Positions 11,264 through 54,293 of a stretch of DNA of 54,293 nt are shown here, one piece after another. Position 1 is the first letter of the stretch. Every line of letters begins with the position of its first letter. The notes under the pieces were generated by a model. That model did no database searches. It was not told where the DNA came from and saw only the letters and a list, made by a program, of their open reading frames with translations. Source of the DNA: a virus (Duplodnaviria; Caudoviricetes); IMG/VR virus record IMGVR_UViG_3300037042_006698, positions 1 to 54,293 of that record; one strand, written 5' to 3'. The position numbers were made by a program, and so were the translations under genes.

Positions 11264-11946
11264 GGAAGTTTCTTTCTTGCCCAGTCACTCACCCAATACC
11301 AACCGATAGCAATACCCGCAGCGGCTACCGCGAGGCCAGAACTTGCGCTAACGCCAGCAGCAGCAAAATTGCCGTCGTCAGCAAAGTCCGTGACCATCAC
11401 ACGAGGATTCGACAGATTTTTCTGGTAGAAGCCTCGGATCTTCGAAGCGATGTCCGCGACGGTGATCTTGCCGTCGTTGTCCGTATCCATCGGACGATTC
11501 TGCGCGTATGCGGAGGTTCCTTCAGAGTACGCAACTGCCGATGGCTCCCGAAGGGCAAAGCTCGGCGCGAAGATGAGCAGGTAGGTCTGATCAAGGGTCA
11601 GTGGCCTCCGTCCTCCGCTCATCCGAAGGAAGTAACTGACGACGTACTTAAGCTGCTCTTCGGGGCTCATTTGGGAGAGCCAGTCCTGGGCGTCTTTGCC
11701 AGGCATCGACATCCCAGCGTCCGCTGCTGCCGCCTTAGCCGCAGGCGCGCAGAACTGAATCAGACCGACGCAGCCTGACGTTGGGTTTCGAACAGATGAC
11801 GAGAACGTGCCTCCGCTCTCAAAAGCGATCACGGTGGCGAGAAAGTCTGGCTCGGTTCCGATCTCGTCGGCCGCCTCGATGAGCCTCTGTCGGAAGGATC
11901 TGCTCGTTCGGTGAAGCCCTGGAATGCCGATCAACGAGGCAGTCAT
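11260..11946 (-). CDS. lytic transglycosylase-like muramidase with an EF-hand-like loop and C-terminal membrane anchor
   Basis: Start at ATG 11946 (ATGA overlap). VIAFES, GLIQF, QLKYV, YAQNRPMDTDNDGKIT; C-terminal LAVAAAGIAIGWYWV-RKK. Confidence 0.8.
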   Translation of the reverse strand: MTASLIGIPGLHRTSRSFRQRLIEAADEIGTEPDFLATVIAFESGGTFSSSVRNPTSGCVGLIQFCAPAAKAAAADAGMSMPGKDAQDWLSQMSPEEQLKYVVSYFLRMSGGRRPLTLDQTYLLIFAPSFALREPSAVAYSEGTSAYAQNRPMDTDNDGKITVADIASKIRGFYQKNLSNPRVMVTDFADDGNFAAAGVSASSGLAVAAAGIAIGWYWVSDWARKKLP

Positions 11947-12764: not shown

Positions 12765-12819
12765 CGTCGCCTAGTCCTTCGGTTGGGCGTGTACGTCCAA
12801 ACCTGGCCAAGCTCCGGCA
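12759..12819. repeat. 61-bp exact direct repeat, second copy at 17246..17306
   Basis: GCTCATCGTCGCCTAGTCCTTCGGTTGGGCGTGTACGTCCAAACCTGGCCAAGCTCCGGCA at both loci; covers the 3' ends of the two pentapeptide genes. Confidence 0.9.
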
Positions 12820-14767
12820 GTGCAAGCGACGGCGCGAGCTTCATGCCCATCGACTTTGGCAGGTCGGTGTAGACGTTGCGGGGGGAGCCATGCTCCTTCT
12901 TCTGCGCGTAGTCGAGCATCTCGACCTTCATGCCATGCTCCTCGGCCAAGTCGAAGGTCAACCCAAGCGCATCCTCGTAAAAGCGATCTGCAAATGGCTG
13001 CATCAACGCAAGCGCCTGCTCAATGTCCTCTGGCTCAAGGCCTCGCGACTGAAGTTGACTCCTGAATTCTGGATCTTTAAGACCCTTTCGTACCCCGCCC
13101 ACGTCGCTTTGGACTTCCTCGACGAGAAATCGGTCGAAGAACTCGCAGTACCTAACCCAGCCAATCGTGAACCACCTCTTACCGGTCTTTACCGGGTGAC
13201 CGGAGCGAATCGAGACCTCCTTTACCTGTCGAAGGATGCTCCTCTGCTCGTCCGTGTAGACAGGGTCATCGAGGTCAACATTGAGCTGCAAAACCTTGTT
13301 TGCGACGTCACAAATTCTTTGAGCAGAACCGTGGTATCTCGACGAGGTTACGCGCCACGTAACCCCGTGCTTTGCAACAATTCGATCCAGAAGCTCAGGC
13401 GTAAAGTCGGCGCCTTGTGTCTCCGCCTTGATCTGCTCGAATTCCTGAGGGAAGAGCTTCTTAAAGGCGCCAGCCTTCATTGGCAAAGCTTGCTTCTTCA
13501 GCTTCGAGACTACCCGAGTCTTTTTGCCCAGCGCCAACGTTCCAGAGCCCGCAACGAACTCAAACTCAAGCAATGTACCCTTCCAAATCGCATCCTCAAT
13601 ACCGACAGCTTCTTCAAGGTCGATGTCCTTCACCTTTGCGTCCTTGAAACTCGCTCCCTCAAGATTCGCCTCGTTAAATCTTGACCGAGTAAGAACGGCC
13701 TCGTCGAAATACGCATTTTGAAGCTTCGACCTTGAGAAAGATGCCTCCCGCAAATCGGCTCTAAAGAAGTTTGCTCCTCTACAATCGGAACCCGCAAAGT
13801 TCGATCTCAAAAGATGAGCATTACGAAAATTTGACGAACGAAGATCGGCATCTTTGAAGCTAACCTGATCTCCACCTGAGGCCTGTTCAAGGTCGGCTTC
13901 AGTCATTACAACACCTGCAAAGCTACTGCCTGAAAGCCTCGCGCGCTGAAGCTTCGTACCTCGGAACGTAGAAGCTTCTGCGTTAACACGTTCCATTCCT
14001 GAGAAAGACATGTCTGCGGTGTCGAATGAAACGTACGAGACATCTGCCCCATCGAATCGAGCATAAACGAGTTTAGCGCCGTAGAAGTTGGAAAGAATGA
14101 GCTTAGCTCTGTCAAATCTAGCGTAAGCTAGGTTGGTATCTCGAAAATCTGCTTTGCCTCTTGCAAGGCTAAATTCTGCGCCCTTCAATTCGGCCGCATA
14201 GAAGTCAACCACCTTGAGTTCAGTTTCAGAGAAGTTGGCCTCTTCGCCCGACGTGTCGTGAAATAGAGAATTTACGATCTTTGCCTCAGAAAACGCGCAG
14301 TACGAAATGTCCGCACGCTCAAAGTAGGCATCCTCGATCAAAGCCCTCTTGAAGTTTGACTCACTAAGATTAGCGGCTCGGAATTTCGTGCCGCTGCATC
14401 GAGACGAATAGAAATCGACATTCGGGAGTTCGCATTGTTCGAAGTTGGCGAAGCTTAGGTCAGCGCCCTCGAAAACGACGATCTTCCCTTTAGACTTCCT
14501 GAAAGAAGCTCGGGTTAGGTTTGCGCCGCTGAAAACGACGCTCTCCATGGAGCACTTCGTGAAATCTGCGGCCATGAGATTAGCGTTTACGAAGCCAACT
14601 CCTCGCAACGAAGCTCCGGAAAAGTCTGCCTCCGCGAGGTTGGCCCCATCAAGAACTACGTCCTCAAGTTTTGCGCCTCTAAAATCAGCTCGCTGACCAT
14701 CTCTGCTTCTGGTTTCCACCCAAACAATATGGGCGGCCAAGATCGCGGTCAGTTCTTCGTTCGTCAT
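12761..14767 (-). CDS. pentapeptide-repeat protein with a C-terminal EEVQSD domain (copy A)
   Basis: Start reassigned to ATG 14767 (MTNEELTAI, ATGA overlap, matches copy B). Long A(D/N)(F/L)xx repeat tract; ends YTPNRRTRRR. Confidence 0.9.
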   Translation of the reverse strand: MTNEELTAILAAHIVWVETRSRDGQRADFRGAKLEDVVLDGANLAEADFSGASLRGVGFVNANLMAADFTKCSMESVVFSGANLTRASFRKSKGKIVVFEGADLSFANFEQCELPNVDFYSSRCSGTKFRAANLSESNFKRALIEDAYFERADISYCAFSEAKIVNSLFHDTSGEEANFSETELKVVDFYAAELKGAEFSLARGKADFRDTNLAYARFDRAKLILSNFYGAKLVYARFDGADVSYVSFDTADMSFSGMERVNAEASTFRGTKLQRARLSGSSFAGVVMTEADLEQASGGDQVSFKDADLRSSNFRNAHLLRSNFAGSDCRGANFFRADLREASFSRSKLQNAYFDEAVLTRSRFNEANLEGASFKDAKVKDIDLEEAVGIEDAIWKGTLLEFEFVAGSGTLALGKKTRVVSKLKKQALPMKAGAFKKLFPQEFEQIKAETQGADFTPELLDRIVAKHGVTWRVTSSRYHGSAQRICDVANKVLQLNVDLDDPVYTDEQRSILRQVKEVSIRSGHPVKTGKRWFTIGWVRYCEFFDRFLVEEVQSDVGGVRKGLKDPEFRSQLQSRGLEPEDIEQALALMQPFADRFYEDALGLTFDLAEEHGMKVEMLDYAQKKEHGSPRNVYTDLPKSMGMKLAPSLALPELGQVWTYTPNRRTRRR

Positions 14768-14967
14768 CGGCGCACCTGAGGCATCAATCCATGTCCATGA
14801 AGCGAAGCGAACTCGAAGACGCGCTGATTCGTTAGCTGAGGACGCGAGCACTGCTTCTCGGCTCGTTCGCCACAAGCCGAGCAGAAGCAGCGAATGAAGT
14901 ACCGCCCGTACGGGTCGTAGGACGCCTCCCAATGGGCGTATGGATGGTTGGGCACTGGTTGCATCAC
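14764..14967 (-). CDS. small Cys/His-rich (zinc-finger-like) protein
   Basis: CFCSACG...HGH; tightly packed in the operon. Confidence 0.6.
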   Translation of the reverse strand: MMQPVPNHPYAHWEASYDPYGRYFIRCFCSACGERAEKQCSRPQLTNQRVFEFASLHGHGLMPQVRR

Positions 14968-14968
14968 T

Positions 14969-15766
14969 TCAGACCTTGACCGTGCCGAGCGGCGGGATGG
15001 ATGTTACCACAGACGGAAGCGTGTCAGGAGGAGGAGCCACGGTATCCATGGCAACGCAGCGGGCTCGGGCGCACCGACCGAGGCTTCGGCAGCGCTGCAT
15101 TTTTGCCTCGTTCATCTTCGCGCCAAAGTGCTCTGTCTCGCCCTTGTGGTCTCGGACCACGGCGTACCCAGACTCCCGGTGAACAAATGGCTCCTGTAAA
15201 AGCTGCATCTGGTCAAACCACGATCCGCTCGGGGCGTAGGGATCAAACCAGGATGGATGGACGAAATTGCTAACGGAAATGGGCTTTCCGTTCACGGTAA
15301 TATCGTAGGCATCACCGTCAACTGGATCGCATACCTCCATAGAGAACTGACGGCCGTCCATCGTGTCGGCCCATCGGTTAACGCCAGGGTTGCCGAGAAG
15401 CTCAAGCACCTCGTGGCTTATTGTCTGCGATACGCTCGATGCCCCACGAGCTATGGCGCCGCCAAGCATCGTGATGGCTTTCGCCGCTACGAAACCACAG
15501 AAGAAGCCTTCCTTGTCACCATGATGCCACCCAAGCGCACCAGGTACCTGGCCGATATTGTCAACGACGTAAACAAGTCCTGCTCCCATCGGCACAGGAG
15601 CACCGTCATCGACGGCGATCACTGGAACGGGAGAAAGTCCCCACGCTGGCGCAAAGTCTCGAATTACCTGAATCGAAATTGCATCGATGATTGCCGTTAG
15701 GTAATCCGCCTGTTTTCCTACAAACAGCGACGATCGGTTGATGACGGCAACGCAGGTTACTCGCAC
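14969..15766 (-). CDS. zincin-like metallopeptidase (HExxE variant)
   Basis: GALGWH, TISHEVLE, MEVCDPV, VSNFVHPSWF. Confidence 0.65.
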   Translation of the reverse strand: MRVTCVAVINRSSLFVGKQADYLTAIIDAISIQVIRDFAPAWGLSPVPVIAVDDGAPVPMGAGLVYVVDNIGQVPGALGWHHGDKEGFFCGFVAAKAITMLGGAIARGASSVSQTISHEVLELLGNPGVNRWADTMDGRQFSMEVCDPVDGDAYDITVNGKPISVSNFVHPSWFDPYAPSGSWFDQMQLLQEPFVHRESGYAVVRDHKGETEHFGAKMNEAKMQRCRSLGRCARARCVAMDTVAPPPDTLPSVVTSIPPLGTVKV

Positions 15767-16915: not shown

Positions 16916-17251
16916 CTATTTCAGCGCCTCAGCGATTGCCTTGTCGGCCTCGTCGCCGATCTTGTTGATGTCGAGCCACTTGCCCCATGGCATCTGCGCG
17001 GTCGCGTAAAGGATGCTCGTCGCAAGCGCAAAGCCCGCAATCTGCTTTACCTCTTCGCGCCGCTCAGGCTTTGACGTTTCCTTGTCGGTCGCCCAATCGT
17101 AGACCATGTTGCTGATCCCAATACCCCCAACTACACCCATACCGAGGACCGCCCAATGACGGTAGTCGAAGTCGTTTGAAGACGGCTTCGGCGCGGGTAA
17201 AGAGGGCGGCGGCTTTGGATCCGCAGGACGGGCAACAACACGACGGCTCAT
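16916..17251 (-). CDS. small membrane protein
   Basis: Pro-rich N-terminus and two hydrophobic segments; ATGA overlap. Confidence 0.7.
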   Translation of the reverse strand: MSRRVVARPADPKPPPSLPAPKPSSNDFDYRHWAVLGMGVVGGIGISNMVYDWATDKETSKPERREEVKQIAGFALATSILYATAQMPWGKWLDINKIGDEADKAIAEALK

Positions 17252-18708
17252 CGTCGCCTAGTCCTTCGGTTGGGCGTGTACGTCCAAACCTGGCCAAGCT
17301 CCGGCATGGCCTCGGACGGGCCAAGCTTCATGCCCATCGACTTTGGAAGGTCGGTGTAGACGTTACGCGGAGAGCCGAACGGCTCCTTCTGCTTGTAGTC
17401 GAGCATCTCGACGTTCTTGCCCTGCTCGGCAGCCATGTCGAAGACAAGGGCGACAGCGTCCTCGTAGAATCTGTCTGCAAACGGCTGTACGAGCGCCATC
17501 GTCGCGTCAAGTTCTTCGGGGTTTATGCCGCTCCCAAGGAGACTCTCGGAAAACTCAGAATCTTTCAGTCCTTTACGAACACCGCCGACGTCGCTCTGCA
17601 CTTCCTCGATCAAGATCCGATCTGGAAAGACGCAGTACCGGATCCAGCCGACGGTAAACAGGTTGCTGCCAGCGGCGACGGGGTGACCACTTCGGCTGGA
17701 GACTTGTGCGACGGCCCGAAGCTGCTTGCGCTGCTCGTCGGTGTAGGCATCGTCGGAGATGTCGATGACAAGCATCAGGACATCGTTGGCGTTCGCGCAA
17801 ATCCGCTGCGCCGACGAAGTGTAACGGCCAGCGACGACGCCCCAAGTGAATCCGTGCTTGGCGACCAGCGATTCAAGAAGCTTCGGCGTAAAGTCCGCGC
17901 CTTGGGTGTCGGCCTTGATCTTCTCAAACTCGTCAGGGAAGAGCTTCTTGAACGCTCCAGCCTTCATGGGAAGCGCCTGCTTCTTCAGCTTCCCAAGGAC
18001 GCCAGCCTTTCGACCAAGCGCCGTCTTCGGCTTAAGCTCTGGAAGGACAAGTCCGATCGCGCCTTCGAGGTCCGCGCCTTCGAGGTCCGCGCCTTCGAGG
18101 TCCGCGCCTTCGAGGTCCGCGCGGGCGAGGTTCGCGAGGGCGAGGACCGCACCTGCGAGTTTTGCGCCTCTGAGGTTCGCGTCCATGAGGTTCGCGCTTA
18201 CGAGGTTCGCGTCTTTGAGGTCCGCGTCTATGAGGTTCGCGCGTACGAGGTTCGCGCCGTAGAGGTTCGCGCCGTAGAGGTTCGCGTCTTCGAGGTTCGC
18301 GCCTCCGAGGTTCGCGCCTTCGAGGTTCGCGCCTTCGAGGTTCGCGCGGTAGAGGTTCGCGCGGTAGAGGTTCGCGCGGTAGAGGTCCGCGCCTTCGAGT
18401 TTTGCGCCTCCGAGGTTCGCGCCGTAGAGGTCCGCGCCTTGGAGGTTCGCGCCGTAGAGGTTCGCGCCTACGAGGTTCGCGCCTTCGAGGTCCGCGTCTA
18501 TGAGGTTCGCGCCTACGAGGTTCGCGTCTTTGAGGCCCGCGTCTACGAGGTTCGCGCCTCCGAGGTTCGCGCCTCCGAGGTTCGCGCCTCTGAGGTTCGC
18601 GCCTTCGAGGTTTGCGCCTTCGAGGTCTGCGCGCATTCCATTTCGACCTTCGGTCTCGACCCAAACAATATGAGCGGCCACGATCGCGGTCAGTTCTTCG
18701 TTCGTCAT
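17248..18708 (-). CDS. pentapeptide-repeat protein with a C-terminal EEVQSD domain (copy B)
   Basis: MTNEELTAIV; highly regular 15-bp repeats; ends YTPNRRTRRR. Confidence 0.92.
   Translation of the reverse strand: MTNEELTAIVAAHIVWVETEGRNGMRADLEGANLEGANLRGANLGGANLGGANLVDAGLKDANLVGANLIDADLEGANLVGANLYGANLQGADLYGANLGGAKLEGADLYRANLYRANLYRANLEGANLEGANLGGANLEDANLYGANLYGANLVRANLIDADLKDANLVSANLMDANLRGAKLAGAVLALANLARADLEGADLEGADLEGADLEGAIGLVLPELKPKTALGRKAGVLGKLKKQALPMKAGAFKKLFPDEFEKIKADTQGADFTPKLLESLVAKHGFTWGVVAGRYTSSAQRICANANDVLMLVIDISDDAYTDEQRKQLRAVAQVSSRSGHPVAAGSNLFTVGWIRYCVFPDRILIEEVQSDVGGVRKGLKDSEFSESLLGSGINPEELDATMALVQPFADRFYEDAVALVFDMAAEQGKNVEMLDYKQKEPFGSPRNVYTDLPKSMGMKLGPSEAMPELGQVWTYTPNRRTRRR
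18060..18632. repeat. 15-bp-period tandem repeat encoding pentapeptide units
   Basis: (GAGGT(T/C)CGCGnnnnn)n on the plus strand. Confidence 0.9.
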
Positions 18709-25313: not shown

Positions 25314-28151
25314 TCAGGCAAACGCGATGTAATCGAAATCGACCGAGTCGCTGATGCCGAGCTGGAAGCCAGCAATGCTTCCGTTCCAATACAGCTTGTC
25401 TCCGGCGGCGATAGCACCGAAGGCGCGAGCCGAGGTGCCTGCATTACCCGAGAAGTAGCAGTCCTTGGTCTTGACGCCGTTACCGACCTCGTAAGAGATA
25501 CCGTTGATACGAACCGCCACGTAGCTGCTAAGCGCAGGCACCGAGACGATACCTGTCGCGCAGGCCTGGTCGCCGTCAGCCGAAGTAGCTGACGCTGCCA
25601 TGCCCTTGTTGGCCGCCGACGGGGCGGGCGCTGCATGGACGTGGTCTACGCGAGCAAGTTGAGTGGCAGTGCCAGCCGCGTCAGCCGTACCGACAGGCGC
25701 GATGGCGCTGCCGTAATCAGCCGACACGCTGTTTGCACCGACAACGATACCGTTGCCAGCGCCGACGGCCAGCGCTGAGCCGCCACCACCCGTAAGACCG
25801 TCGCCCGCTGCGCCTGCCGCAATGCGGAGGGCGTCGGACGAAATTTCGATCGTCGAGTTGTCAACGTTGACGTCAAGCGGAGCGCCAGCGCCGCCGCTCA
25901 AGCCAGAGCCAGCCGCGCCCGACGCGATCTGAAGCTGGTTCGAGCCGTTCACGCTGACGGTGGTTCCGTCAACAAGAACGTTGAGAGTGTTCGCGCTCTT
26001 CTCAAGCGCCACACCCGCGAGAACGACACCGGCACTGGAGAATTGCACGAACGTGATAGGAGTCGTGCCAAGCGTTCCTCCAGCGTTCGAGGTGCATACC
26101 CAGCCCGTGTCAGCCTGGGAAGTGCCCTGCTCGATGAACGTGAATGCGCCTGGGAAATCCGACCATGCGTCCATGTCAGGCGAACGAGACCAAGATCCAG
26201 CGGCAACGATATAGATGCCGTTGTCAGCCGAGTTGGTCTGGTTCTTTACGAGGATGCGGTTGCCTGCGGAGAGGGCAACGCCATCAACGGTCTGCGTTCC
26301 GCTGAGGGTCAGGTTCCCCGTGCTTGCCGCAACGCAGGAAGCCTTGATGTCGAGGCCCTGAGCGACGCTGTCAACGTACGCCTTCGTTGCGGCATCCTGG
26401 TCGTTGACCGGATCAGCAACGTTGGTGAGGTTGTTCGAGCCCATGGACTGAGCGCCCGAGAACGCGTTCGCGCCAGAGGCAATGATGACGCTCGAATCAA
26501 CCTTCGCTGACGTAACAGCGTTGTTGTCGAGCTTTGCCGTGGTGACGTTCGCGTCCGCAATCTTCGCCGTCGTGACGGCCGAATCCGCGATCTTTACCGT
26601 CGTGACGTTCGAGTCCGCGAGCTTCGAAGTGATAACCGACGAGTCGAGGATCTGAGACGAGGTCACCGCGTTCGCGGCAATCTTCGCGCTAGTCACGGAG
26701 TTGTCGTCGAGCTTCGCAGTCGTAACCGCAAGCGGCCCGAGCTGGTCGGTCGTAACCGCTCCGCCCGCAATCTTCGACGTGGTAACCGAGCCCGTCGCGA
26801 TCTTCGAAGAGGTAACCGCCTCGTCAGAAATCTTCGACGTGATGACGGCGCCCGAAACGAGGTTGACGGTATCAACCGAGTTTCCGTCGAGCTTGCCGAG
26901 AACAACCGCGCCGTTAAGGATCTGCGTGCTGGTCACCGAGTTCGCAGCAAGCTGCGCGTTGGTGATGGTCGCGTTCGCGATCTTCTGCGCGGTCACCGAG
27001 AAGTCAGCGAGCTTCGCCGTCGTCACCGACGAGTCGAGAAGCTGGCTGGTGGTCACGGCGCTCGCAGCAATCTGCGCGCTGGTGACCGCGTTGTCCGCAA
27101 TCTTGGCCGTCGTAACGGCATTCGCCGCGAGCTTCGCCGTCGTCACCGACGAGTCGAGAAGCTGGGTCGTGGTGACCGAGTTCGCCGCAAGCTGCGCGTT
27201 AGTGATGCTTGCGTTAACGATCTGCTGAGCGCCGATCGTGAAATTCGCGATCTGGCTGTTGGTGATCGTGTTGTTGACGAGGTTGCCACCGAGGATGGTG
27301 TAGGGGGCAATCTGCGCGCTGGTGATCGTGTTGTTCGCGATCTGGGCGCTGGTGACCGCATTGTTTGAAATCTTCGACGTCGTGACGGCGAAGTTGATGA
27401 TCTGGTTGGGGCCAACCGAGTTGAACGCAAGCTGCGCGCTGGTCACAGCGTTCGCCGCGATCTTCGCCGTCGTGACGGCGTTGTCGCCAAGCTTCGCCGT
27501 GATCACCGAGGAGTCGAGGATCTGCGCCGAGGTTACCGCGCTAGCGGCAATCTTCGCGCTGGTGACCGCGTTGTCATCGATCTTCGCCGTCGTGACGGCG
27601 AGCGAGGCAAGCTCATCGGTTCCGACAGCGCCGGAAGCGATCTGGTCCGCACCAACCGCGCCGAACGCGATTTTCGCGCTGGTCACCGCATTCGCCGCGA
27701 TTTTCGCGGTGATGACGGCGTCCGTCGCAAGCTCGTCGCTCCCGACGGCAGCGTTGGCAATCTGATCCGCGCCAACCGCGCTGAACGCGATCTTGGCGCT
27801 GGTCACGGCGTTGTCGTCGAGCTTCGCCGTGGTGACTGCGAGCGCTGCAAGTTCGTCGGTACCGACGGCAGCGTTAGCGATCTGATCCGAACCAACGGCG
27901 CCCGTCGCGATTTTCGCGCTGGTCACGGCGTTGTCGGCGAGCTTGCCGGTCGTGACCGAAAGCGCGGCGAGCTGATCGGTGTTAACCGCACTCGACGCGA
28001 TTTGCGACGAAGTGACAGCGTTATCAGCAATCTTTGCCGTGGTGACAGCGTTTGCGGTGATCTTGGCAGTCGTAACCGCCGAGTCCACGAGGTTGGTAGT
28101 ATTTACACCGTCATTACCGGTGCCGAGCTGCTTGCCTTTAATGAGAGCCAC
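25314..28151 (-). CDS. long fibre/spike protein with 10-aa shaft repeats
   Basis: About 50 (N/S)AVT(T/S)AKIA(D/A) units, then the phage-fibre module DAATKAYVD...QGLDIK...TVDGV...RILVKNQ...NGIY, then Gly-rich AGxGL repeats. Confidence 0.9.
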   Translation of the reverse strand: MALIKGKQLGTGNDGVNTTNLVDSAVTTAKITANAVTTAKIADNAVTSSQIASSAVNTDQLAALSVTTGKLADNAVTSAKIATGAVGSDQIANAAVGTDELAALAVTTAKLDDNAVTSAKIAFSAVGADQIANAAVGSDELATDAVITAKIAANAVTSAKIAFGAVGADQIASGAVGTDELASLAVTTAKIDDNAVTSAKIAASAVTSAQILDSSVITAKLGDNAVTTAKIAANAVTSAQLAFNSVGPNQIINFAVTTSKISNNAVTSAQIANNTITSAQIAPYTILGGNLVNNTITNSQIANFTIGAQQIVNASITNAQLAANSVTTTQLLDSSVTTAKLAANAVTTAKIADNAVTSAQIAASAVTTSQLLDSSVTTAKLADFSVTAQKIANATITNAQLAANSVTSTQILNGAVVLGKLDGNSVDTVNLVSGAVITSKISDEAVTSSKIATGSVTTSKIAGGAVTTDQLGPLAVTTAKLDDNSVTSAKIAANAVTSSQILDSSVITSKLADSNVTTVKIADSAVTTAKIADANVTTAKLDNNAVTSAKVDSSVIIASGANAFSGAQSMGSNNLTNVADPVNDQDAATKAYVDSVAQGLDIKASCVAASTGNLTLSGTQTVDGVALSAGNRILVKNQTNSADNGIYIVAAGSWSRSPDMDAWSDFPGAFTFIEQGTSQADTGWVCTSNAGGTLGTTPITFVQFSSAGVVLAGVALEKSANTLNVLVDGTTVSVNGSNQLQIASGAAGSGLSGGAGAPLDVNVDNSTIEISSDALRIAAGAAGDGLTGGGGSALAVGAGNGIVVGANSVSADYGSAIAPVGTADAAGTATQLARVDHVHAAPAPSAANKGMAASATSADGDQACATGIVSVPALSSYVAVRINGISYEVGNGVKTKDCYFSGNAGTSARAFGAIAAGDKLYWNGSIAGFQLGISDSVDFDYIAFA
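26500..28095. repeat. degenerate 30-bp-period coding repeat (fibre shaft)
   Basis: Recurring plus-strand words such as ATCTTCGCCGTCGTGAC and GCGCTGGTCACCG at 30-nt multiples. Confidence 0.85.
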
Positions 28152-30473: not shown

Positions 30474-30722
30474 TCAACGCTTTAAAAAGAGGATGAGCGC
30501 CACACCGGCGGCCAGGCCGATCCCGCCAACGATTACAATACGTCGGTCGATGCCAAGAATTTTGTCACTATCGGATCCATTGGTAGGCTCTAAACCAAAT
30601 GCCGACGTGACCGACCGCTCGTAGGGAGCCGTCGGCGGTGTAACGAAAGGGCCCTCCTGGCTCTGCCAAGCAACGCCATCAGTACCGGCAACTGCCTGCA
30701 TGTATGCGACGTTCATATTCAT
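30474..30722 (-). CDS. small tail-anchored membrane protein
   Basis: YMQAVAG near the N-terminus; IVIVGGIGLAAGVALILFL-KR. Confidence 0.7.
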   Translation of the reverse strand: MNMNVAYMQAVAGTDGVAWQSQEGPFVTPPTAPYERSVTSAFGLEPTNGSDSDKILGIDRRIVIVGGIGLAAGVALILFLKR

Positions 30723-30725: not shown

Positions 30726-31175
30726 TCAAGCCTCCGCGAGCGATTGACCACGGTTCTTCATCAACGCGATAACCACTAGAAAAGCAGACGTTCCAAGGAC
30801 CATGGGAACTAGCCAATTCGTTTTTTCACTGCTTTTGGCAGTAAGCTGGTCAATGCGTGCCGCCGCATAATCTCGGAATCCTCTGTTCTTCTCGTTCTCA
30901 GTCGTGCCTTCAATGTATAGGCGGAACCATCGAACAGCAGATTTTGAGTCTCCAAGGCTGTCAAAGTTGTCGCCGAGTTTGATCGCAACGTTTGGCGCGG
31001 GACAAATATCGTATGCCTTCAAATAGATGGCAATCGCTTCATGCCTCTTGCCAGCATCCTGAAGAGCTAACGCTTGATAAAAAAGGTCCGAGACTCTCTT
31101 CTTGTCGGACTCGGAACACTTTGAGATGTCGTAAGCCGACAACCCGGCAACAGCTTGAGCGTAAAACGGCTGCAT
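30726..31175 (-). CDS. TPR-like protein with C-terminal membrane anchor
   Basis: LFYQALALQDAGKRHEAIAIYLKAY...KLG...SAVRWFRLY; WLVPMVLGTSAFLVVIALM-KNR. Confidence 0.75.
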   Translation of the reverse strand: MQPFYAQAVAGLSAYDISKCSESDKKRVSDLFYQALALQDAGKRHEAIAIYLKAYDICPAPNVAIKLGDNFDSLGDSKSAVRWFRLYIEGTTENEKNRGFRDYAAARIDQLTAKSSEKTNWLVPMVLGTSAFLVVIALMKNRGQSLAEA

Positions 31176-46848: not shown

Positions 46849-46910
46849 GTCGTTGCCGAAGCTAGCTACGGATTGACTTCGTGGCAACATTCAGAGAGAG
46901 GATGATTCAC

Positions 46911-47417
46911 ATGAAGATTTTCGACGCAGTGAAGCGGGCACGGTTGTTGGCAAAGTCGATCATGGAGGAGCCGCTTGAGCTTCCTGAACCGACGCCGGAG
47001 GTCTACGAGGATACCCGGCTTGATGACGCTCTTGCGCGGATGAAGGTCCTTGAGAGGATCAACAGCGAGTATTTCGACGTTATTGAGCGAATCGAAAAAG
47101 AGCGCGACCAGTGGAAGGACATGTTCTTCACGCAGGCGAGCGAGCACCAAAACGCTCAAGCGTTGCTTCAGAAGATGCTCGCGGACTGCTCGAATAACCT
47201 TCGCGCCGCCCTTAGTCAGCTCAATTTCTTCCGAAAGGGCGCTGACCTGGAGACCGTCATCACGCCAAAGTCACTTATCGATTTTCCGACTGACCTTCCC
47301 GATCAATACGGCGCGAAAATGAAGAAGCTTGCTTCAGAGGCGCTTCCCCAGACGAACGGTCTGACCGAGCGGGAACGGATTTCGGTAACACTTCCTGCTG
47401 CAAGCTCAGTCGGCTGA
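46911..47417 (+). CDS. coiled-coil hypothetical protein
   Basis: GAGAGG RBS; helical heptad pattern. Confidence 0.7.
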   Translation: MKIFDAVKRARLLAKSIMEEPLELPEPTPEVYEDTRLDDALARMKVLERINSEYFDVIERIEKERDQWKDMFFTQASEHQNAQALLQKMLADCSNNLRAALSQLNFFRKGADLETVITPKSLIDFPTDLPDQYGAKMKKLASEALPQTNGLTERERISVTLPAASSVG

Positions 47418-47469: not shown

Positions 47470-48669
47470 GTGAAAGTCTATCGCGAAGAAAATGTTTTTG
47501 AGGCGGCGGTTCGACGGATCTCGTGGTGTTTTGACCGCTACGAGAACGTGTGCGTGTCTTTCAGCGGCGGGAAAGATTCGACCGTTCTGATGCACCTGAC
47601 GTGCGCCGAAGCACGAAGGCGCGGTCGAAGGGTCCAGGTCCTCTTCATTGACTGGGAGGCGCAGTACCGTCTTACGATTCAGCACGTCGAGCGAATGTTC
47701 GCAGACTACGCGGATGTGATCGAGCCGATCTGGGTTTGCCTTCCGCTAACGACGGTCAACGCGTGCAGCGCGTTTGAGCCTGAATGGTCGTGCTGGGATC
47801 CGTCGAAAGCTGGCCTTTGGGTGAGGGACGTTCCTGAGTGCGCGGTTCGCGATCCTCTTGCCTTTACGTTTTACGAGCCGTCGATGACGTTTGAACATTT
47901 CGTCGATGCGTTCACTCGGCACCTTGGACCATCAACGGTTCAGCTTCTCGGCCTTCGGTCGGATGAAAGCTCTGCAAGGTTTCTGTCGATATGCGATGAC
48001 CTAAAGAACGTGGATGGTCTCCGATGGACAACGGAGACGCTTCCAGGAGTCGTGAAAGGCACGCCCATCTACGACTGGTCGGCGAAGGATGTGTGGGTGT
48101 TTCACGCCAAGACTGGGCTTGCCTATAACCGGGTGTACGATCGGTTTCATCAGGCCGGTCTCAGCCTCTCGCAGATGCGCGTGTGCGAGCCGTACGGCAA
48201 CGAGCAGAGAAAGGGCTTGCAGCTCTTTCACGCTATCGAGCCTGAAACATGGTCAAAGGTTGCCGCTCGCGTATCAGGGGCGAACGCCTGCGCGCTTTAC
48301 TCGAAAGAGCGCGGAAACATCTTGGGCGACCGAAAGATCGAGTTGCCGAACGGGCACACTTGGCGTTCGTTTACCGAGTTTCTTCTCGCGACGATGCCTT
48401 CTCGTACGGCAGAGCATTACCGAAACAAGATTGCCGTCTACATCAAGTGGTATCGCGAGCACGGGGTCGATGAACTTCCCGAGACGGCCGATGGCGACTT
48501 GAAAGCGAAAGACGTTGGTTCATGGAGGCGGATCTGCCGAGCCATTTTGAAGAACGACTACTGGTGTAGCTCGCTTGGGTTTTCGCCGCAGAAGACTAAG
48601 TCCTACGAGCGGTACCGAAAGATCATGGAAAGGCGCAGGAATGACTGGGGAATCTTCGCAAATCGTTGA
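47470..48669 (+). CDS. ibrA: PAPS-reductase-family / DUF3440 protein (IbrA/YbdN-like)
   Basis: VSFSGGKDS PP-loop, LFIDWEAQY, LGLRSDES, PIYDW, MRVCEPYG, WRRICRAILKNDYWC. Confidence 0.92.
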   Translation: MKVYREENVFEAAVRRISWCFDRYENVCVSFSGGKDSTVLMHLTCAEARRRGRRVQVLFIDWEAQYRLTIQHVERMFADYADVIEPIWVCLPLTTVNACSAFEPEWSCWDPSKAGLWVRDVPECAVRDPLAFTFYEPSMTFEHFVDAFTRHLGPSTVQLLGLRSDESSARFLSICDDLKNVDGLRWTTETLPGVVKGTPIYDWSAKDVWVFHAKTGLAYNRVYDRFHQAGLSLSQMRVCEPYGNEQRKGLQLFHAIEPETWSKVAARVSGANACALYSKERGNILGDRKIELPNGHTWRSFTEFLLATMPSRTAEHYRNKIAVYIKWYREHGVDELPETADGDLKAKDVGSWRRICRAILKNDYWCSSLGFSPQKTKSYERYRKIMERRRNDWGIFANR

Positions 48670-49288
48670 AAAGGTACGGGCTGCACTCGCGTGCGCGAAG
48701 GACCTGCCTCTCGATGAACTTGTAGCGGTTTTGAACGAGATTCGTCGCGCCATTCAGCACGCGAGCCCATTCAAGGACGAGCCCGTTGACCTTGTGACGT
48801 GGGTCCGAGCCGACTGCCTAACAGGAAACGACTACAACCCGAACACCGTTGCACCTCCGGAGATGGAGCTGCTCCGACATTCGATTCGATCGGACGGCTA
48901 CACGCAGCCGATCGTTGCGTTCGAGAAGGACGGAAAGTTCGAGGTGGTGGATGGTTTCCACCGCCACCGGGTAGGAAAGGAAACACCGGATATTCAGGCA
49001 CGTCTTTCAGGCTACCTTCCGGTTGTCGTCATCAACCAAAGCCGCGATGGCAAGAGTGACCGCATGGCTTCGACGATCCGGCACAATCGGGCGCGAGGAA
49101 AGCATCAGGTCGATGCCATGAGCGACATCGTCATTGAACTCTTTCGTCGAGGATGGTCGAACGATCAGATCGGCAATGAGCTTGGCATGCAAGAGGATGA
49201 GGTCCTGAGGCTTAAGCAAGTTTCAGGGCTCGCGGATTTGTTCAAGGACGCCGAATTTTCTAAGTCCTGGGATTGGATTCCAGAATGA
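48641..49288 (+). CDS. ibrB: ParB/Srx-like nuclease-domain protein (IbrB/YbdM-like)
   Basis: SPFKDEPVD, NDYNPNTVAPPEMELL, DGYTQPIV, VVDGFHR, STIRHNRARGKH, LGMQEDEVLRLKQ. Confidence 0.92.
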   Translation: MTGESSQIVEKVRAALACAKDLPLDELVAVLNEIRRAIQHASPFKDEPVDLVTWVRADCLTGNDYNPNTVAPPEMELLRHSIRSDGYTQPIVAFEKDGKFEVVDGFHRHRVGKETPDIQARLSGYLPVVVINQSRDGKSDRMASTIRHNRARGKHQVDAMSDIVIELFRRGWSNDQIGNELGMQEDEVLRLKQVSGLADLFKDAEFSKSWDWIPE

Positions 49289-50124
49289 TCGTGCATCAAA
49301 GCCTCGACCGGGATTTCTTTGCAATCATCGATACGCCGGAGAAGGCGTACGTGCTCGGTTTGATTTGGTCGGACGGAACCATCGACTCGCGGAGCAAGCA
49401 GGTGAGGCTCAGGCTTCACCAGAAGGATGGAGAGGTTCTGGAGGCTATCTCGAAGATCGTTGGCGGAGTGTCACCGAAAACGATCGCTCCGAGCGGCAAC
49501 GCAAAATCGCCTCAATCGGCTCTCATCTGGAGCAGTCAGAAGATGGTTTCGGATCTTGAGAAACTAGGCCTCTGCCGAAACAAGGATCAGGTTCTTCCAA
49601 AAGCCCAGATGGTTGACCTTCGCTTCGAAGCCGATTTCGTTAGGGGCCTCGTCGATGGCGACGGGTGCGTTCAGTTCGTGAACTCGACACCCAGGATCTC
49701 GTTCAGGAACAGAAACGACCACCTTCTTGGGTTTGTTCGTAACTTCTGGAAGCGCGCAACTGGCGTTGATGTGTCGCTCGACGGAAAGAAGCCACACAAG
49801 GGCACTGGGAGAATTTATCCAAGCGTCTACATGAGCGGCACGAACGCCGTTGCTGCTGCAAATGCGACGTACGACGGAGCCCGTATAGCGATGGCAAGAA
49901 AGCTGTCGGTGGTCCACGAGTTCAAACGCTGGGTTCCAAGTCCTCACCGAAACCGGTTCCGATTCGGACCTGTCATCAAGCGAATTGGAAGCTCGGGCAA
50001 CTCTGCTGCCCTGCTTCTTGATGCAGCGGTTGCAGGTCATCTTGGGGTTTCAAAAGGCGACTACGTTGAGATTGAGCTGATGTCAGACTGCTCGCTGTCT
50101 GTTCGTCGATCAAAAAAACCTTGA
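49285..50124 (+). CDS. LAGLIDADG homing-endonuclease-like protein with a C-terminal AbrB/MazE-like domain
   Basis: FFAIIDTPEKAYVLGLIWSDG and FVRGLVDGDGC; C-terminal GNSAALLLDAAVAGHLGVSKGDYVEIEL; ATGA overlap. Confidence 0.85.
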   Translation: MIVHQSLDRDFFAIIDTPEKAYVLGLIWSDGTIDSRSKQVRLRLHQKDGEVLEAISKIVGGVSPKTIAPSGNAKSPQSALIWSSQKMVSDLEKLGLCRNKDQVLPKAQMVDLRFEADFVRGLVDGDGCVQFVNSTPRISFRNRNDHLLGFVRNFWKRATGVDVSLDGKKPHKGTGRIYPSVYMSGTNAVAAANATYDGARIAMARKLSVVHEFKRWVPSPHRNRFRFGPVIKRIGSSGNSAALLLDAAVAGHLGVSKGDYVEIELMSDCSLSVRRSKKP

Positions 50125-50236: not shown

Positions 50237-52684
50237 ATGCCGAAAGCAGCTTTGGCAAAACCTATCTCGCGTAATCAGGCATTGTCCTACGACAGGACAG
50301 TGCCGAATGGCCTTGGCGTGACGGCAATCTCAGCCGTGAACGGCCGTGGGAGCTACGCGCGCTTCGCGGCGAATCGTTACAAGGCAACGCGCAGCATTAT
50401 CGGCGGCGCTGGTTCGTCTTCCGAACTCTCACCGAATGGAGACGGGATGTTTTACTACAAGAACAAGAAAAGCGCGCCGAAGATGAGCGCAAAGGCCAAG
50501 AAGAAGTGCGCTCCGCTCGTGAGCAAGGCTGTCTCGGAGGCGAAAGCGGCCCTCGACAAACTTGCCAAGAAGTCGAAGCCCGCGAAAAAGGCCAAGAAGC
50601 GCAAGCTGAGCGCTGCCCAAAAGGCGGCGCTCAAGAAGGGTCAGGCCATGATGGCTGCTCGTCGCGCGGCGATTGCCTCCGGTCGTCCTCTTCCGAAGAA
50701 AGCCCCCAAGAAGGCCGCCCCCAAGAAGGCCGCCCCCAAGAAGGCGAAAAAGGCTTCCAAGAAGGCTCCGAAGCGGGCAAAGAAGTACCAGCCGAAGCCT
50801 TTCGTGCGTAAGGCTGCTCCGAAGCGTAAGGCTGCTCCGAAGCGTAAGGCTGCTCCGAAGCGTAAGGCTGCCGCAAAGCACAAGGCGCCGAAGCATAGCG
50901 CCAAGAAGTCCAAGAAGTTTAAGCGTGTCAAAGCGCTCTACGTTCTTGCTAACCGCAAGTATCGCGCAAACCTCAGCTACGATCAGCTCGTCGCGTACGA
51001 GGCTGCTCGCGCGAAGAAGTCCGCTCCGGCTGCTGCCCAGTCTGCTGCCGCCCCGGCGCGGGGTCTCGCTGCTTACCGGCAGCTCCGCGCGCAGGTGAAG
51101 TCGCTCAAGGATGCTGCCCGTGGCGAGGCGGGTCCCGCGAAGGCCGCTCGCGACAAGGCGAAGGCAGACTACGCTGCGGCGGTGAAGTCGTTTAAGGGTA
51201 AGAAGGACGCTGGGTCGAAGGCCCAGCTTCGTCAAGCCAAGGCGACCCTCGACGTGGCGCAGGCGCAGTATGATTACGCGCAGCACCTTACCGATGCGAA
51301 GATCGCTGCGGCTCAGGGCATGCTTCCCGCCAAGAAGGCACGCAAGGCTCGCAAGCCGGTTCAGCCTCGCGTGTTCGGCGCTCAGTACAAGTCGAAGCGC
51401 GTTCGCGTCGGCAAGAGCGGTCACGCGAACGTTGTGGCGCGCATCGGCAAGAAGGGCGTTGCCACCTACATGTACCTCGACAAGAAAGGCAAGGCGCGCA
51501 AGCTCCCTGACTGGATGGTCGCCGGTGCCCCGAGCGCCGAAGCGTTCGAGAAGAAGCCTGCGTATAAGGAGCGCCTTGCAGCTCGCCGCAAGAAGGCGGC
51601 CGAGTCGGTCAGCAAGAAGGTCCTCGCAGGCAACTATCCGTTCACCCCGAATAAGCGGGTGGTGACTTTTGAACAGTGGGCAAAATCTATGAAGAAGAAG
51701 CACAAGAAGCACGGTAAGGCTCGCCACAACCCGCTTATGCAGGCAGCGGCGAACAAGAAGCGCGGTCGCAAGCACCGCAAGGCTCGTCGCAACCCCCTCA
51801 TGCAGGCAGCGGCGAACAAGAAGCGTGGTCGCAAGCACTCGAAGCGCATGCACCGTAACGGCCAGGTTGCGACGTACATCAGCAACATGGGCGCTTACGC
51901 TTCGGACCTCCTTGAGGTTTTGAAGAGCGGCGCGGTCGTCAGCGGCGGCCTCATCGCCCACAAGGCGCTGACCAACGTCGTCGTCGAGCAGGCGTTCGGC
52001 AAGATTGAGTTCCTCGGCAAGCTCCCCGCGAAGTACCAGAAGAGCGTCGCGGCTGTCGCCGTGGCGGCCGTTGGTATCCCGCTTTCGACGAAGTTCGGCG
52101 GCCAGTATGGCAAGAAGGTCAGCATGGGCATGGGCGCCGCCCTCGTCCACACGCTGTTCTCCGAGCTGCTCGGCGGCATGGACTCGACGGCGAAGTACAA
52201 GCAGTACCTCGGATCGTACACCGAGGCCGACATGAGGCTTCCGATGGGCTCGTACTACGAGTTCCAGCCGGGTCAGTCTTATGCCGGAATGGGTGAGTAC
52301 ATTGAGCAGTCCGGCCCTTTGGCCGGTTTCGGTGAGCTTCAGCAAGCGGCGGCCGGTTTCGGCTCGCCCGCGCTGATGCAGGCCGCTGCTGGGGTTGGCG
52401 AGTACATTGTGTCCGGTGCCGAGGGTATCGGCGAGTACGAGCAGGTTCGCCCTGAGTACACCGCGCCCCATTCGCTTCGTGAAGGCATCGCGCCGAGCCT
52501 CGGTTCGGCCGAGCAAGCGCTGAACATCGCGGAGGCGGCGGCTGGAGTGGGTGGTCTTGGAAATCAGGACCTCTCCCTTGAGCAGACCGTCTACCCGCAA
52601 GGTCAGGCCCTCGATATCGGGGACCAGCCTGGCGGAAGCCGTGCCGGTGTCTTTTACGGCGGCAACGGCGTGTTTGGTCCCTGA
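50237..52684 (+). CDS. histone-H1-like, membrane-linked putative virion core/scaffold protein
   Basis: KKAAPKK and KAAPKR repeats, a duplicated KARxNPLMQAAANKKRGRKH, hydrophobic helices, then an acidic tail with G-(M/F/V/I)-G-E repeats; directly upstream of the capsid candidate. Confidence 0.8.
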   Translation: MPKAALAKPISRNQALSYDRTVPNGLGVTAISAVNGRGSYARFAANRYKATRSIIGGAGSSSELSPNGDGMFYYKNKKSAPKMSAKAKKKCAPLVSKAVSEAKAALDKLAKKSKPAKKAKKRKLSAAQKAALKKGQAMMAARRAAIASGRPLPKKAPKKAAPKKAAPKKAKKASKKAPKRAKKYQPKPFVRKAAPKRKAAPKRKAAPKRKAAAKHKAPKHSAKKSKKFKRVKALYVLANRKYRANLSYDQLVAYEAARAKKSAPAAAQSAAAPARGLAAYRQLRAQVKSLKDAARGEAGPAKAARDKAKADYAAAVKSFKGKKDAGSKAQLRQAKATLDVAQAQYDYAQHLTDAKIAAAQGMLPAKKARKARKPVQPRVFGAQYKSKRVRVGKSGHANVVARIGKKGVATYMYLDKKGKARKLPDWMVAGAPSAEAFEKKPAYKERLAARRKKAAESVSKKVLAGNYPFTPNKRVVTFEQWAKSMKKKHKKHGKARHNPLMQAAANKKRGRKHRKARRNPLMQAAANKKRGRKHSKRMHRNGQVATYISNMGAYASDLLEVLKSGAVVSGGLIAHKALTNVVVEQAFGKIEFLGKLPAKYQKSVAAVAVAAVGIPLSTKFGGQYGKKVSMGMGAALVHTLFSELLGGMDSTAKYKQYLGSYTEADMRLPMGSYYEFQPGQSYAGMGEYIEQSGPLAGFGELQQAAAGFGSPALMQAAAGVGEYIVSGAEGIGEYEQVRPEYTAPHSLREGIAPSLGSAEQALNIAEAAAGVGGLGNQDLSLEQTVYPQGQALDIGDQPGGSRAGVFYGGNGVFGP
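50806..50871. repeat. 18-bp tandem repeat GCGTAAGGCTGCTCCGAA x3.7
   Basis: Encodes RKAAPK repeats. Confidence 0.9.
51716..51838. repeat. 63-bp-period tandem duplication
   Basis: Encodes KAR(H/R)NPLMQAAANKKRGRKH twice. Confidence 0.85.
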
Positions 52685-52831: not shown

Positions 52832-53602
52832 ATGCCGAAACTTACCAATGTTCGTGAGCGTGTTCACCAGCCCTTTCGCGACACCCTCGTTCGCACCTCC
52901 GGTATGTATACCGGAAATATCACCGACGTGACCCGCCTCTTCACCGTTGCGGGCAAGCCCGAAGGTGAAACCAACCTGCCGAACGGCAGCACGCTCCCGA
53001 GCGACCAGTCGATGGTTGTTCTCGCGTGCCGCGTGTTCACGCACTTCCGCAACTCGATCCAGCGCAGCACCTCGCCGCTCTCGATCGGTGGCCAGGACAT
53101 CCTGCGCCACAACGGTGACTTCGTCTACCCGGCGGACGCCGCAACGGCGACCCAGTTCGCCCAGCTCCTCAACGGCCAGGCCGTTGGCGAGCCGGAAGAC
53201 TGCTTCCGCCTCTGGTGGCAGGCGCAGGACCAGCTCCTTTGGAGCTTCGGTGCTGGAGACAAGTTCTCCATCACCAGCATGCCCTCGGCGTATTTCCCGT
53301 ACGGCGGCGGCTTGGCCCAGGGCCAGATGCAGCAAACCGACCTTATCTACTGGTCGAACGGTATGCCGAGCCACGAGGGTATCCTCCGTCTCGCGCGCGC
53401 CGTGCTCATCCCCCCGCGCCAGAACATCAAGTGCGAAGCGCAGATCAGCCCCCTCTCGGCTCTTTCGAACGCCGCGACGGTCAGCTCGACCCAGGGCGCC
53501 CGCAACTTGCTCTCGCTGCGCGACAACTTGAACGCCCCCGACCTTATCAACAAGGTTGTGTCGTTCACGTTTGACGGCCTTTTCAGCCGCGACGTGCAGT
53601 GA
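52832..53602 (+). CDS. candidate major capsid protein (single jelly-roll type)
   Basis: AAGGA RBS and strong codon bias; beta-strand-rich pattern HQPFRDTL...LFT...ETNL...LP...NGMP...VLIPPRQNI...FDGLFSRDVQ; no HK97 features; downstream hairpins. Confidence 0.6.
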   Translation: MPKLTNVRERVHQPFRDTLVRTSGMYTGNITDVTRLFTVAGKPEGETNLPNGSTLPSDQSMVVLACRVFTHFRNSIQRSTSPLSIGGQDILRHNGDFVYPADAATATQFAQLLNGQAVGEPEDCFRLWWQAQDQLLWSFGAGDKFSITSMPSAYFPYGGGLAQGQMQQTDLIYWSNGMPSHEGILRLARAVLIPPRQNIKCEAQISPLSALSNAATVSSTQGARNLLSLRDNLNAPDLINKVVSFTFDGLFSRDVQ

Positions 53603-53607: not shown

Positions 53608-53690
53608 CGCGCGGTCGGCCGGATACGGCCTCCGCGCTCTCTCGCGAAAATGCCCGACTCGGCCTTCCGGTCGGGTCGGGCATTTCGTTT
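53608..53690 (+). terminator. tandem hairpins / terminator after the capsid candidate
   Basis: GCGCGG..GGCCG-GATA-CGGCC..CCGCGC, then AAATGCCCGACTCGGCC-TTCC-GGTCGGGTCGGGCATTT followed by T-rich sequence. Confidence 0.7.
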
Positions 53691-53758: not shown

Positions 53759-54293
53759 ATGAACCAGTACGACGTTTCTGATTTTGCTCGGGCGCTTGAG
53801 CAGATGCGGTCCGACTTCAACCAGGGCCTCAATCGCGTTGCGGGTGGTCTGCGTAACTACAACGACAAGCAGCTCGCGCAAATGCACGGGCGCATGGAGG
53901 AGTTGTCTCGCGTAACGAACTCGATGCACGCGAAGCGTAGCGGCCGATTCTGGCAGGGTCGCACGACGATGATCGAGGATATCCCCGGTCGTCGCGTCCC
54001 CTACGTCCTCGTGGTAGACATCCCGATCAGCTCCTCGGATACAAGCATCCGCGAGTCGTCGGTTACGATTTCGCAAGAAGGCCCCTTCGTTGCCGTCAAG
54101 CGTATGGCGACGTTCCAGAGCGTTCTTGAGTACCAGGTGAACACCGTTTCAGAAGGAATTGCCCGATTTACCGGCCGGTCGTTCGGTCGCTATCGACCGG
54201 TGCATTCGGTCTGCGACATCATGGACTCGCAGCACAACACGCTTGGAAACACGAGCCAGTGGTTCCTCGCGGCGCTTGCGAACCCGAACGCCG
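53759..54293 (+). CDS. 3'-truncated protein, candidate second capsid protein
   Basis: AAAGGAAG RBS; MNQYDVSDFARALEQ...IEDIPGRRVPYVLVVDIPI...VTISQEGPFVAVKR...; open to the window end; helical N-terminus then beta-strands. Confidence 0.65.
   Translation, partial: MNQYDVSDFARALEQMRSDFNQGLNRVAGGLRNYNDKQLAQMHGRMEELSRVTNSMHAKRSGRFWQGRTTMIEDIPGRRVPYVLVVDIPISSSDTSIRESSVTISQEGPFVAVKRMATFQSVLEYQVNTVSEGIARFTGRSFGRYRPVHSVCDIMDSQHNTLGNTSQWFLAALANPNA

Follow-up and report, generated by a model that had tools for sequence, protein, structure and literature searches.

A protein family of unusual, conserved three-part design in the core module of widespread unclassified large viruses

Proteins that condense packaged DNA are well known in adenoviruses and in some other eukaryotic viruses. 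To our knowledge they are hardly known in prokaryotic viruses, which generally fill a preformed shell by pumping in naked DNA. Here we describe a gene at positions 50237..52684 (+) of a linear virus record of 54,293 bases from IMG/VR (IMGVR_UViG_3300037042_006698, CheckV completeness 36%), the whole of which is hereafter called the window. Its 815-amino acid (aa) product, the focal protein, founds a new protein family whose three-part design is unusual and conserved and whose genes lie in the core module of widespread unclassified large viruses. For adenovirus, the available portions of PMC4246237, PMC5491326 and bioRxiv 10.1101/857581 describe an abundant basic histone-like protein packed with the double-stranded DNA, and a protein VI that has both a membrane-active peptide and the ability to bind the inner face of the main shell protein, a site for which VII and VI compete. 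Parts comparable to adenovirus pVII, pX (Mu) and pVI are united in the single 815-aa chain of the focal protein, whereas in adenovirus the core proteins VII, X and VI are separate small proteins, and none has a Pfam or PDB sequence relation to the focal protein.

Two membrane-containing phages and the linker histones offer further comparisons. In the Thermus phage P23-77, the available part of PMC12429598 describes VP11 as a basic minor capsid protein of ~22 kDa (pI 10.63) present in 147 copies per capsid. Like the focal gene, the VP11 gene lies upstream of shell genes (VP16 and VP17), but five annotated genes, including an identified packaging ATPase, separate VP11 from VP16, and VP11 is a protein of 187 aa against the focal 815, with no hydrophobic module or Gly/aromatic tail seen in it. 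VP11 reportedly aids assembly through lipid-protein interactions, as Pawlowski and colleagues are said to have found in 2015. No homology was detected between VP11 and the focal family (hhalign probability 0.14%), nor between the shell proteins VP16 and VP17 and the downstream neighbours of the focal gene (0.17% and 0.06%). In PRD1, P30 and P16 are small anchored or extended proteins that act as linkers or tape measures between the shell and the internal membrane, P30 reportedly having been the subject of a 2001 study by Rydman and co-workers. Their role resembles the one we propose below for the focal tail and for small proteins carrying a QA(A/V)AG motif, but P30 and P16 are not known to have a basic DNA-binding arm, and an internal membrane is hypothetical for the lineage considered here. 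Bacterial H1-like proteins built from Lys/Ala/Pro repeats also exist, and these, together with the tails of linker histone H1, are like the focal arm in composition and in short repeats such as AAPKK and KRKAAP. An earlier reading of the window by a model, the initial annotation, had called this part of the protein histone-H1-like; the term holds for its Lys/Ala/Pro-rich, tail-like composition but not as a statement of homology, as neither the focal protein nor any of 62 family members matched Linker_histone. Unlike linker histone H1, the focal protein has no winged-helix Linker_histone domain, and its arms vary in sequence from homologue to homologue.

The focal gene is a real gene. Its open frame runs for 821 codons from stop to stop with no internal stop, and the start codon is supported because homologues share the first residues MPK(I/A)ALAK..(I)(T/S)RNQALSY. 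Re-reading of coordinates and motifs recovered the 815-aa open reading frame (ORF) and every sequence feature that the initial annotation had listed, including its basic K/A/R-rich stretch of about 540 aa and its acidic tail: residues 1-545 hold 154 Lys and Arg against 22 Asp and Glu (net charge +132, pI 11.35, 22% Ala), and residues 651-815 hold 6 against 18 (net -12, pI 4.18, 18% Gly, 17 aromatic residues). Within the tail lie LGSY (residue 658), MGSYY (670), AGMGEY (683), AGFGEL (696), AGFGSP (706), AGVGEY (718), EGIGEY (729) and AGVGGLG (769). Motifs of the form QAAA[GN] occur four times in the protein against 0.029 expected, and G-hydrophobic-G-[EQSG] six times against 0.33 expected; none of 20000 composition-preserving shuffles reached either count. 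That (L/M)QAAA precedes Asn twice and Gly twice was also seen correctly in the initial annotation (LMQAAAN at residues 500 and 521, LQQAAAG at 701, LMQAAAG at 713), but the two Asn sites do not count separately: both LMQAAAN copies fall inside one 63-bp tandem duplication (51707-51838, 2.1 copies, 89% match) and therefore record a single recent event, not two independent ones. An antisense ORF of 723 aa (50429..52600, -) overlaps the gene and is most simply explained as a by-product of composition, since conservation at the protein level tracks the + frame. On a near-identical contig, the gene call P0109 begins at an internal start of the focal protein and yields 437 aa; together with the antisense ORF, it makes automatic annotation of the focal gene unreliable.

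A search with the C-terminal 276 residues of the focal protein (E<=1e-3) returned 107 homologues of 460-1105 aa, 26-68% identical over 276 aa and all metagenomic, on contigs of at most 183 kb. Alignments were built from 25 (A1) and 62 (A6) sequences, and family-wide counts were made over 108 members. Outside the family, no match to the focal protein was found in Pfam (E<=0.01) or PHROG, nor in Pfam for 62 family members; a PDB sequence search with the family alignment gave no relative at E<=0.1, and tblastn of the focal protein and of its 256-aa downstream neighbour against 50,697 phage records gave no match. Within the family the architecture is conserved: the same succession of islands, arms, hydrophobic module and tail runs through both the 25 and the 62 aligned members, so that the three-part plan read from the window in the initial annotation is a property of the family, and the N-terminal island and the tail were found on one polypeptide in 20 of the 25.

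The protein opens with a conserved island (residues 1-75; 50237..50461, +), which reads ITRKQALSYxRTxPNxxGVTAIxxVNGxGxYxRRY in both alignments and was also matched by tblastn upstream of the 256-aa homologue at loci L025 and L026. It is followed by a first basic arm (residues 76-245; 50462..50971, +) with 66 Lys and Arg, 2 Asp and Glu, a pI of 11.95 and 26% Ala. Two sets of perfect tandem repeats lie in this arm, one of 15 bp in 2.9 copies (50702-50745) and one of 18 bp in 3.7 copies (50806-50871), and neither its length nor its sequence is kept between homologues. An Ala/Lys/Gln-rich stretch (residues 246-372; 50972..51352, +; net +16), alignable in the closest relatives only, leads to the central conserved island (residues 373-480; 51353..51676, +), with the pattern RxYGxGK..ARxG..TYxYxTKxGxxRKIPxxAxxG ... 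RRxRAA ... FTPN, in which G430, R451 and N472 show no variation among the 25 aligned sequences and are conserved to at least 90% in the 62-sequence alignment. The second basic arm (residues 481-545; 51677..51871, +) has 25 Lys and Arg, no Asp or Glu, and two RRNPLMQAAANKKRGRKH units derived from the 63-bp duplication; the QA[AL]AN form is present in 23 of the 108 family members only. The hydrophobic module (residues 546-650; 51872..52186, +) begins at N550, which is invariant in both alignments, and comprises Ala/Gly/Val-rich segments at residues 555-584, 596-623 and 627-648 with a conserved Pro (AAVGIP). Best conserved of all is the acidic Gly/aromatic tail (residues 651-815; 52187..52681, +), whose elements are GSYYEF, repeats of QAAAG-hydrophobic-G, GIGEYE, EGIxPxLxSAExALxxAEAAAGVG and a terminal PGGSRAGVFxGGxGhFG (PGGSRAGVFxGGxGVFG at the extreme C-terminus of the focal copy). 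Each tail carries between 1 and 6 QAAAG-hydrophobic-G units, most commonly 3 (45/108 members).

Gene order around the family is fixed. A search of IMG/VR with the focal sequence alone returned nothing, and an alignment-based search returned 12 loci, on contigs of 38-182 kb; in all 12 the focal gene is followed by genes for proteins of ~256, ~320-380 and ~275-376 (~300) aa, of which the window holds the first whole and the second only as its 5' part. Searching in reverse from the 256-aa protein identified six contigs from metagenome-assembled genomes (MAGs), and a focal homologue lay upstream in all four that had at least 1.8 kb there, the other two having 62 and 0 bases upstream of the 256-aa gene; three of these homologues were found by tblastn, and the fourth is a divergent 824-aa ORF recognised by its motifs. 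The initial annotation had held that its reading would fall if the gene were not conserved next to capsid homologues; the position proved constant (12/12 IMG/VR loci, 4/4 MAG contigs), beside genes whose products are capsid proteins only putatively.

Sharing of the tail motifs with other proteins of the lineage also exceeds chance. Two small proteins of the window open with Y(M/A)QAVAG, as the initial annotation had stated and the translations bear out: one of 82 aa (30474..30722, -), beginning MNMNVAYMQAVAGT with YMQAVAG at residues 7-13, and one of 149 aa (30726..31175, -), beginning MQPFYAQAVAGL with YAQAVAG at residues 5-11. Both have one C-terminal hydrophobic anchor, and a single-sequence search found no IMG/VR relative of the 149-aa protein. 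Against these two carriers of QA[AV]AG outside the focal protein, at most 0.14 were expected for the whole proteome. Elsewhere, the motif is carried by one protein of the record G005 (= L013) and by ORFs of L007 and L010. In all five non-focal carriers the motif lies within residues 1-70 and the C-terminus has a hydrophobic anchor, after which come a few basic residues; ORFs with a crude hydrophobic anchor make up 17-26% of the ORFs in these genomes. One family of carriers, 282-319 aa long and 64-68% identical (L010 2004-2963; L013 1942-2790, = L056 1001-1846; L057 1001-1840), has an N-terminal TRGGLFGPGGYGGGIFDG...EQAAAGI that is invariant in 3/3 members. This arrangement, TRGGLFGPGGYGGGIFDGSQMGFG...EQAAAGI, lies at the free end distal to the anchor and resembles the pair found in the focal tail, QAAAG-hydrophobic-G plus the terminal GSRAGVFxGGxGhFG. 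The presence of the same two motifs at the free, anchor-distal ends of anchored proteins suggests a common binding partner, and from these sequences we read the pair as a probable docking module common to proteins held by an anchor, or alternatively as a processing signal that they share. The 282-319-aa carriers also contain two repeats with Cys (DGKFGxxTCGA), reminiscent of peptidoglycan-binding domains, in addition to the C-terminal anchor, and could be virion-associated wall-binding proteins.

We postulate that the focal product is a virion-internal linker, with arms that would bind DNA, a hydrophobic anchor, and a tail that would dock on the putative shell proteins of the neighbouring genes, a reading that we favour tentatively and to which we give slightly less than even weight. 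The bridge between condensed DNA, membrane and capsid proposed in the initial annotation is thereby supported in part, through the conserved plan, the constant gene position and the shared motif. Judged by their composition, the arms rich in Lys, Arg and Ala (net +132 for residues 1-545) would bind packaged DNA non-specifically and neutralise its charge; their sequence is poorly conserved, and their length varies and has been increased by tandem duplication. The two to three hydrophobic segments after N550 would anchor the protein in a lipid layer or in a hydrophobic protein core, marginally so in the focal copy. Motif sharing and gene order suggest that the acidic Gly/aromatic tail, with its QAAAG-hydrophobic-G units and conserved C-terminus, may act as a docking module. 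The partner that it would have in common with the small anchored proteins may most simply be the shell proteins encoded immediately downstream.

A number of observations weigh against such a linker. Basic arms vary from ~65 aa in P0138 to over 800 aa in P0105, and the arm could act as a spacer and not as a DNA binder; one homologue is labelled 'colicin import membrane protein' by its source, and K/A-rich spacers occur in envelope-spanning proteins. The three hydrophobic helices, approximately, of the initial annotation are present as segments but weak in the focal copy, whose best 19-residue Kyte-Doolittle mean (1.51) is below the usual 1.6. It stands at the low end of a family in which 99/108 members reach at least 1.6 (median 1.85), which makes membrane insertion by family members plausible. 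Hydrophobic peaks (15-residue window, n=108) number two in 69 members, three in 33, one in 5 and four in 1; two membrane passes would leave the basic arms and the tail on the same side, and three crossing segments would put arm and tail on opposite sides, which would match the small carriers, where the anchor separates the basic end from the motif end. Hydrophobic moments of the focal segments are low (0.02-0.16). No second QA[AV]AG carrier was found in two of the four complete relatives (G001 and G003). On the shell side, none of the three downstream neighbours has a Pfam, PHROG or PDB relative, and structure models from shallow alignments reached a predicted local distance difference test (pLDDT) score of only 44.6 for the 256-aa protein (12 sequences) and 47.7 for the 380-aa protein (11 sequences). 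Finally, no viral hallmark gene was recognised in the lineage, so that the virion context of the focal protein is itself presumptive.

Among the alternatives, one is compatible with a linker. The protein may be, as the initial annotation also suggested by analogy with adenovirus pVII/pX processing, a polyprotein precursor in which some protease cuts at QAA-A|G and QAA-A|N, sites of small-x-small type, so that YxQAVA|G leaders would be removed from the small anchored proteins and the focal chain would be divided into basic core peptides, a membrane-active middle and an acidic tail. We consider this unlikely, though several features speak for it. The QAAA motif recurs at the borders of arm and tail and at the N-termini of five other anchored proteins, and Asn residues stand at module borders (N472, at least 90% conserved in the 62-sequence alignment, and N550, invariant in both). 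Three short database forms of 268-280 aa (P0110, P0111, P0121) start at the border between basic arm and hydrophobic module, and the available portions of PMC4246237 and PMC5491326 give a precedent in adenovirus, where core and capsid precursors are cut by a viral protease. On the other hand, no candidate enzyme turned up: Peptidase_C48 (PF02902), S49, ClpP and S78 were found in 0/5 records, with the C48 search matching in one control, and adenain (PF00770) in 0/6 records, a search in which the control genomes were also without a match. The QAAAN units come from the recent duplication and have counterparts in few family members (23/108), the short forms may be internal-start gene calls such as P0109 on near-identical sequence, and a repeated motif is equally expected of a multivalent docking module. 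As to how cleavage might proceed, Asn-dependent self-cleavage at the border Asn residues or a signal-peptidase-like A-x-A rule would be guesses.

Another alternative is a scaffold or chaperone for assembly, which would nucleate the shell on membrane or DNA and would be absent from the mature particle or degraded in it. The site of the focal gene directly upstream of the putative shell genes fits such a factor, scaffold genes often being found in this position, and so does a repetitive, disordered-looking tail with many weak motifs. Known scaffolds, however, typically have neither a hydrophobic module nor so high a net charge as the +132 seen here, both of which make the focal protein atypical, and its extreme C-terminus and islands are conserved in the manner of parts of a stable complex; we regard a scaffold as improbable. 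A non-structural cell protein seems to us improbable to the same degree. It would be either a membrane-anchored tether for the DNA of a replicating or partitioning genome or a basic spacer across the envelope, comparable to TolA/TonB, for which the low-complexity basic arm with hydrophobic segments, the colicin-import label of one homologue, and the ParB-like and other DNA-handling genes nearby in the window can be cited. Those ParB-like, PAPS-reductase-like and LAGLIDADG genes are, however, an insertion specific to the window, and the conserved upstream gene abuts the focal gene in G001; the invariant partner is the block of the 256-aa gene and not replication genes, and the tail motifs are common to small anchored proteins and not to DNA enzymes. 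A role in genome delivery, with a hydrophobic module that is membrane-active at entry (compare adenovirus protein VI) and a basic arm that escorts the DNA, seems to us very improbable. The Ala/Gly/Val-rich segments with their conserved Pro speak for it, as does the precedent, in the available part of bioRxiv 10.1101/857581, of a membrane-disrupting peptide kept silent on hexon; the low hydrophobic moments, unlike those of amphipathic lytic peptides, speak against it.

Docking of the focal tail on a shell depends on the identity of the neighbours, which we regard as putative shell proteins from their conservation and position. First among them is the 256-aa protein (52832..53602, +), constant downstream neighbour of the focal gene and product of the most conserved gene of the lineage, with homologues 50-68% identical in 12/12 loci and 823 clusters at E<=1e-5 (identity 52-79% among the 120 listed). 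Consensus scans placed a promoter-like site ahead of the gene and, after it, a terminator-like hairpin (53648..53685, +) with a 17-pair stem that includes 10 G-C pairs. The second neighbour, of the ~320-380-aa family, is present as a 5' part of 178 aa (53759..54293, +) that runs off the window; it is 42% identical to the 380-aa protein of L003, and the family is present in 12/12 loci and has 128 representatives at E<=1e-3. The low-confidence models of both neighbours are mostly beta strand, and an Atlas search gave the clusters of PRD1 P3 and P2 as the nearest named ones, at 0.77-0.78, which is lead level, and otherwise only unnamed viral clusters; these two leads in one direction hint weakly at a jelly-roll-like fold. 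Foldseek of the 256-aa model against BFVD gave nothing at E<=0.001 (best template modelling score 0.24), the VIA wide structural search of the 380-aa model gave only coiled coils, on its N-terminal helix, and a Pfam scan of 55 distant relatives of the ~350-aa family gave no capsid family. PDB sequence searches with the neighbour and focal family alignments (A2, A3, A5, A6) gave nothing meaningful. The 256-aa and ~350-aa families are not detectable paralogues, as hhalign assigned them a probability of 2%. Prediction of a complex between the 256-aa protein and tail residues 650-815 returned a score of 0.01, 'no answer', and counts neither way. At L005 (12294-13487) there is a second copy of the 256-aa gene, extended to 397 aa by an internal insertion of ~95-130 residues that could represent either an extra domain or an element resembling an intein.

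On the upstream side, a conserved gene encodes a 178-aa protein (46881..47417, +). In G001/L003 its homologue immediately precedes the focal gene, at a distance of 88 bp, and in L002, L004 and L005 it is on the upstream side; in the window three genes intervene. These three (47470-50124) are a PAPS-reductase/DUF3440 gene, a ParB-like gene that overlaps it and a LAGLIDADG endonuclease gene, and the block, specific to the window, looks like a mobile insertion.

The lineage itself consists of large double-stranded DNA genomes: 4 of the 12 locus records have direct terminal repeats and are 100% complete according to CheckV, with lengths of 143.7, 179.4, 138.4 and 136.2 kb (G001, G003, G004 and G005). 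Searches with hidden Markov models, which divergent forms could escape, found Terminase_6N in 0/5 records and TerL_ATPase, HK97 Phage_capsid and Pox_A32 in 0/6 each; PRD1 P3_N was not found in lineage records, the controls also being without a match, and FtsK_SpoIIIE gave a single weak match, to a P-loop within a DnaB-like helicase. When approximately the 44 largest of the 188 ORFs of G001 were scanned against Pfam or PHROGs, primase, helicases, an exonuclease, glycosyl- and methyltransferases, a MoxR-VWA pair, a tyrosine-recombinase domain and a TnpB-like gene were matched, and no head, portal-type or packaging gene was recognised among them. Genes of the lineage look prokaryotic (UvrD, DnaB, ParB-like, PAPS reductase). 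MAG contig labels were mixed (Methanomicrobiales, Pirellulales twice, Pseudomonadota, Pseudomonadales and Gemmatimonadota across six contigs), and we therefore propose no host. Among the papers listed by literature searches on histone H1-like phage virion proteins and on double jelly-roll prokaryotic viruses, supplements being outside the scope, no such protein or lineage was found.

Further genes were observed along these genomes. A second block is common to the window (20224-40663, -) and G001 (412-15528) and encodes proteins of 207, 308 (anchored), 402 and 802 aa that belong to no known families; many small anchored ORFs lie within the window block at 29-32 kb. The window also encodes two large pentapeptide-repeat proteins of 723 and 486 aa (12761-14932 and 17248-18708), a 945-aa repeat protein (25314-28151) whose repeats match many PHROG 'tail fiber' families, and a tRNA-Asn (GTT) at 2626-2699. 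In G001, adjacent proteins of 964, 506 and 481 aa (56875-62755; L017, L018, L031) share a domain of ~57 residues with a match to PHROG 4577 'tail protein'; no other tail-like signal was seen there. A MoxR-type AAA ATPase gene lies beside that of a VWA-domain protein at 93868-96573 of G001, and a TnpB/IS605 OrfB-like gene lies at 123285-124460.

One conserved protein in a widespread lineage combines a polycationic arm of very large size with a hydrophobic module and a proposed shell-side motif. A bolder version of events, which we think quite unlikely, is that these are large (about 140-180 kb) prokaryotic viruses with jelly-roll shells, an internal lipid layer and no packaging motor, in which the genome would first be condensed by the protamine-like focal protein, whose anchor and tail would then recruit membrane and shell, and QAAAG-hydrophobic-G would be a lineage-wide shell-docking or processing signal. 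If condensation did come first, a virus of bacteria or archaea would have a nucleoprotein core in the style of adenovirus or of protamines. If the focal protein is a virion-internal linker, as we tentatively favour, it would provide a handle on how unrecognised large viruses build and fill their particles, and a short motif with which to mark the inner virion proteins of the group. Even if the mechanism is wrong, the focal family, together with its three constant neighbours, provides good markers with which to find and classify this lineage.

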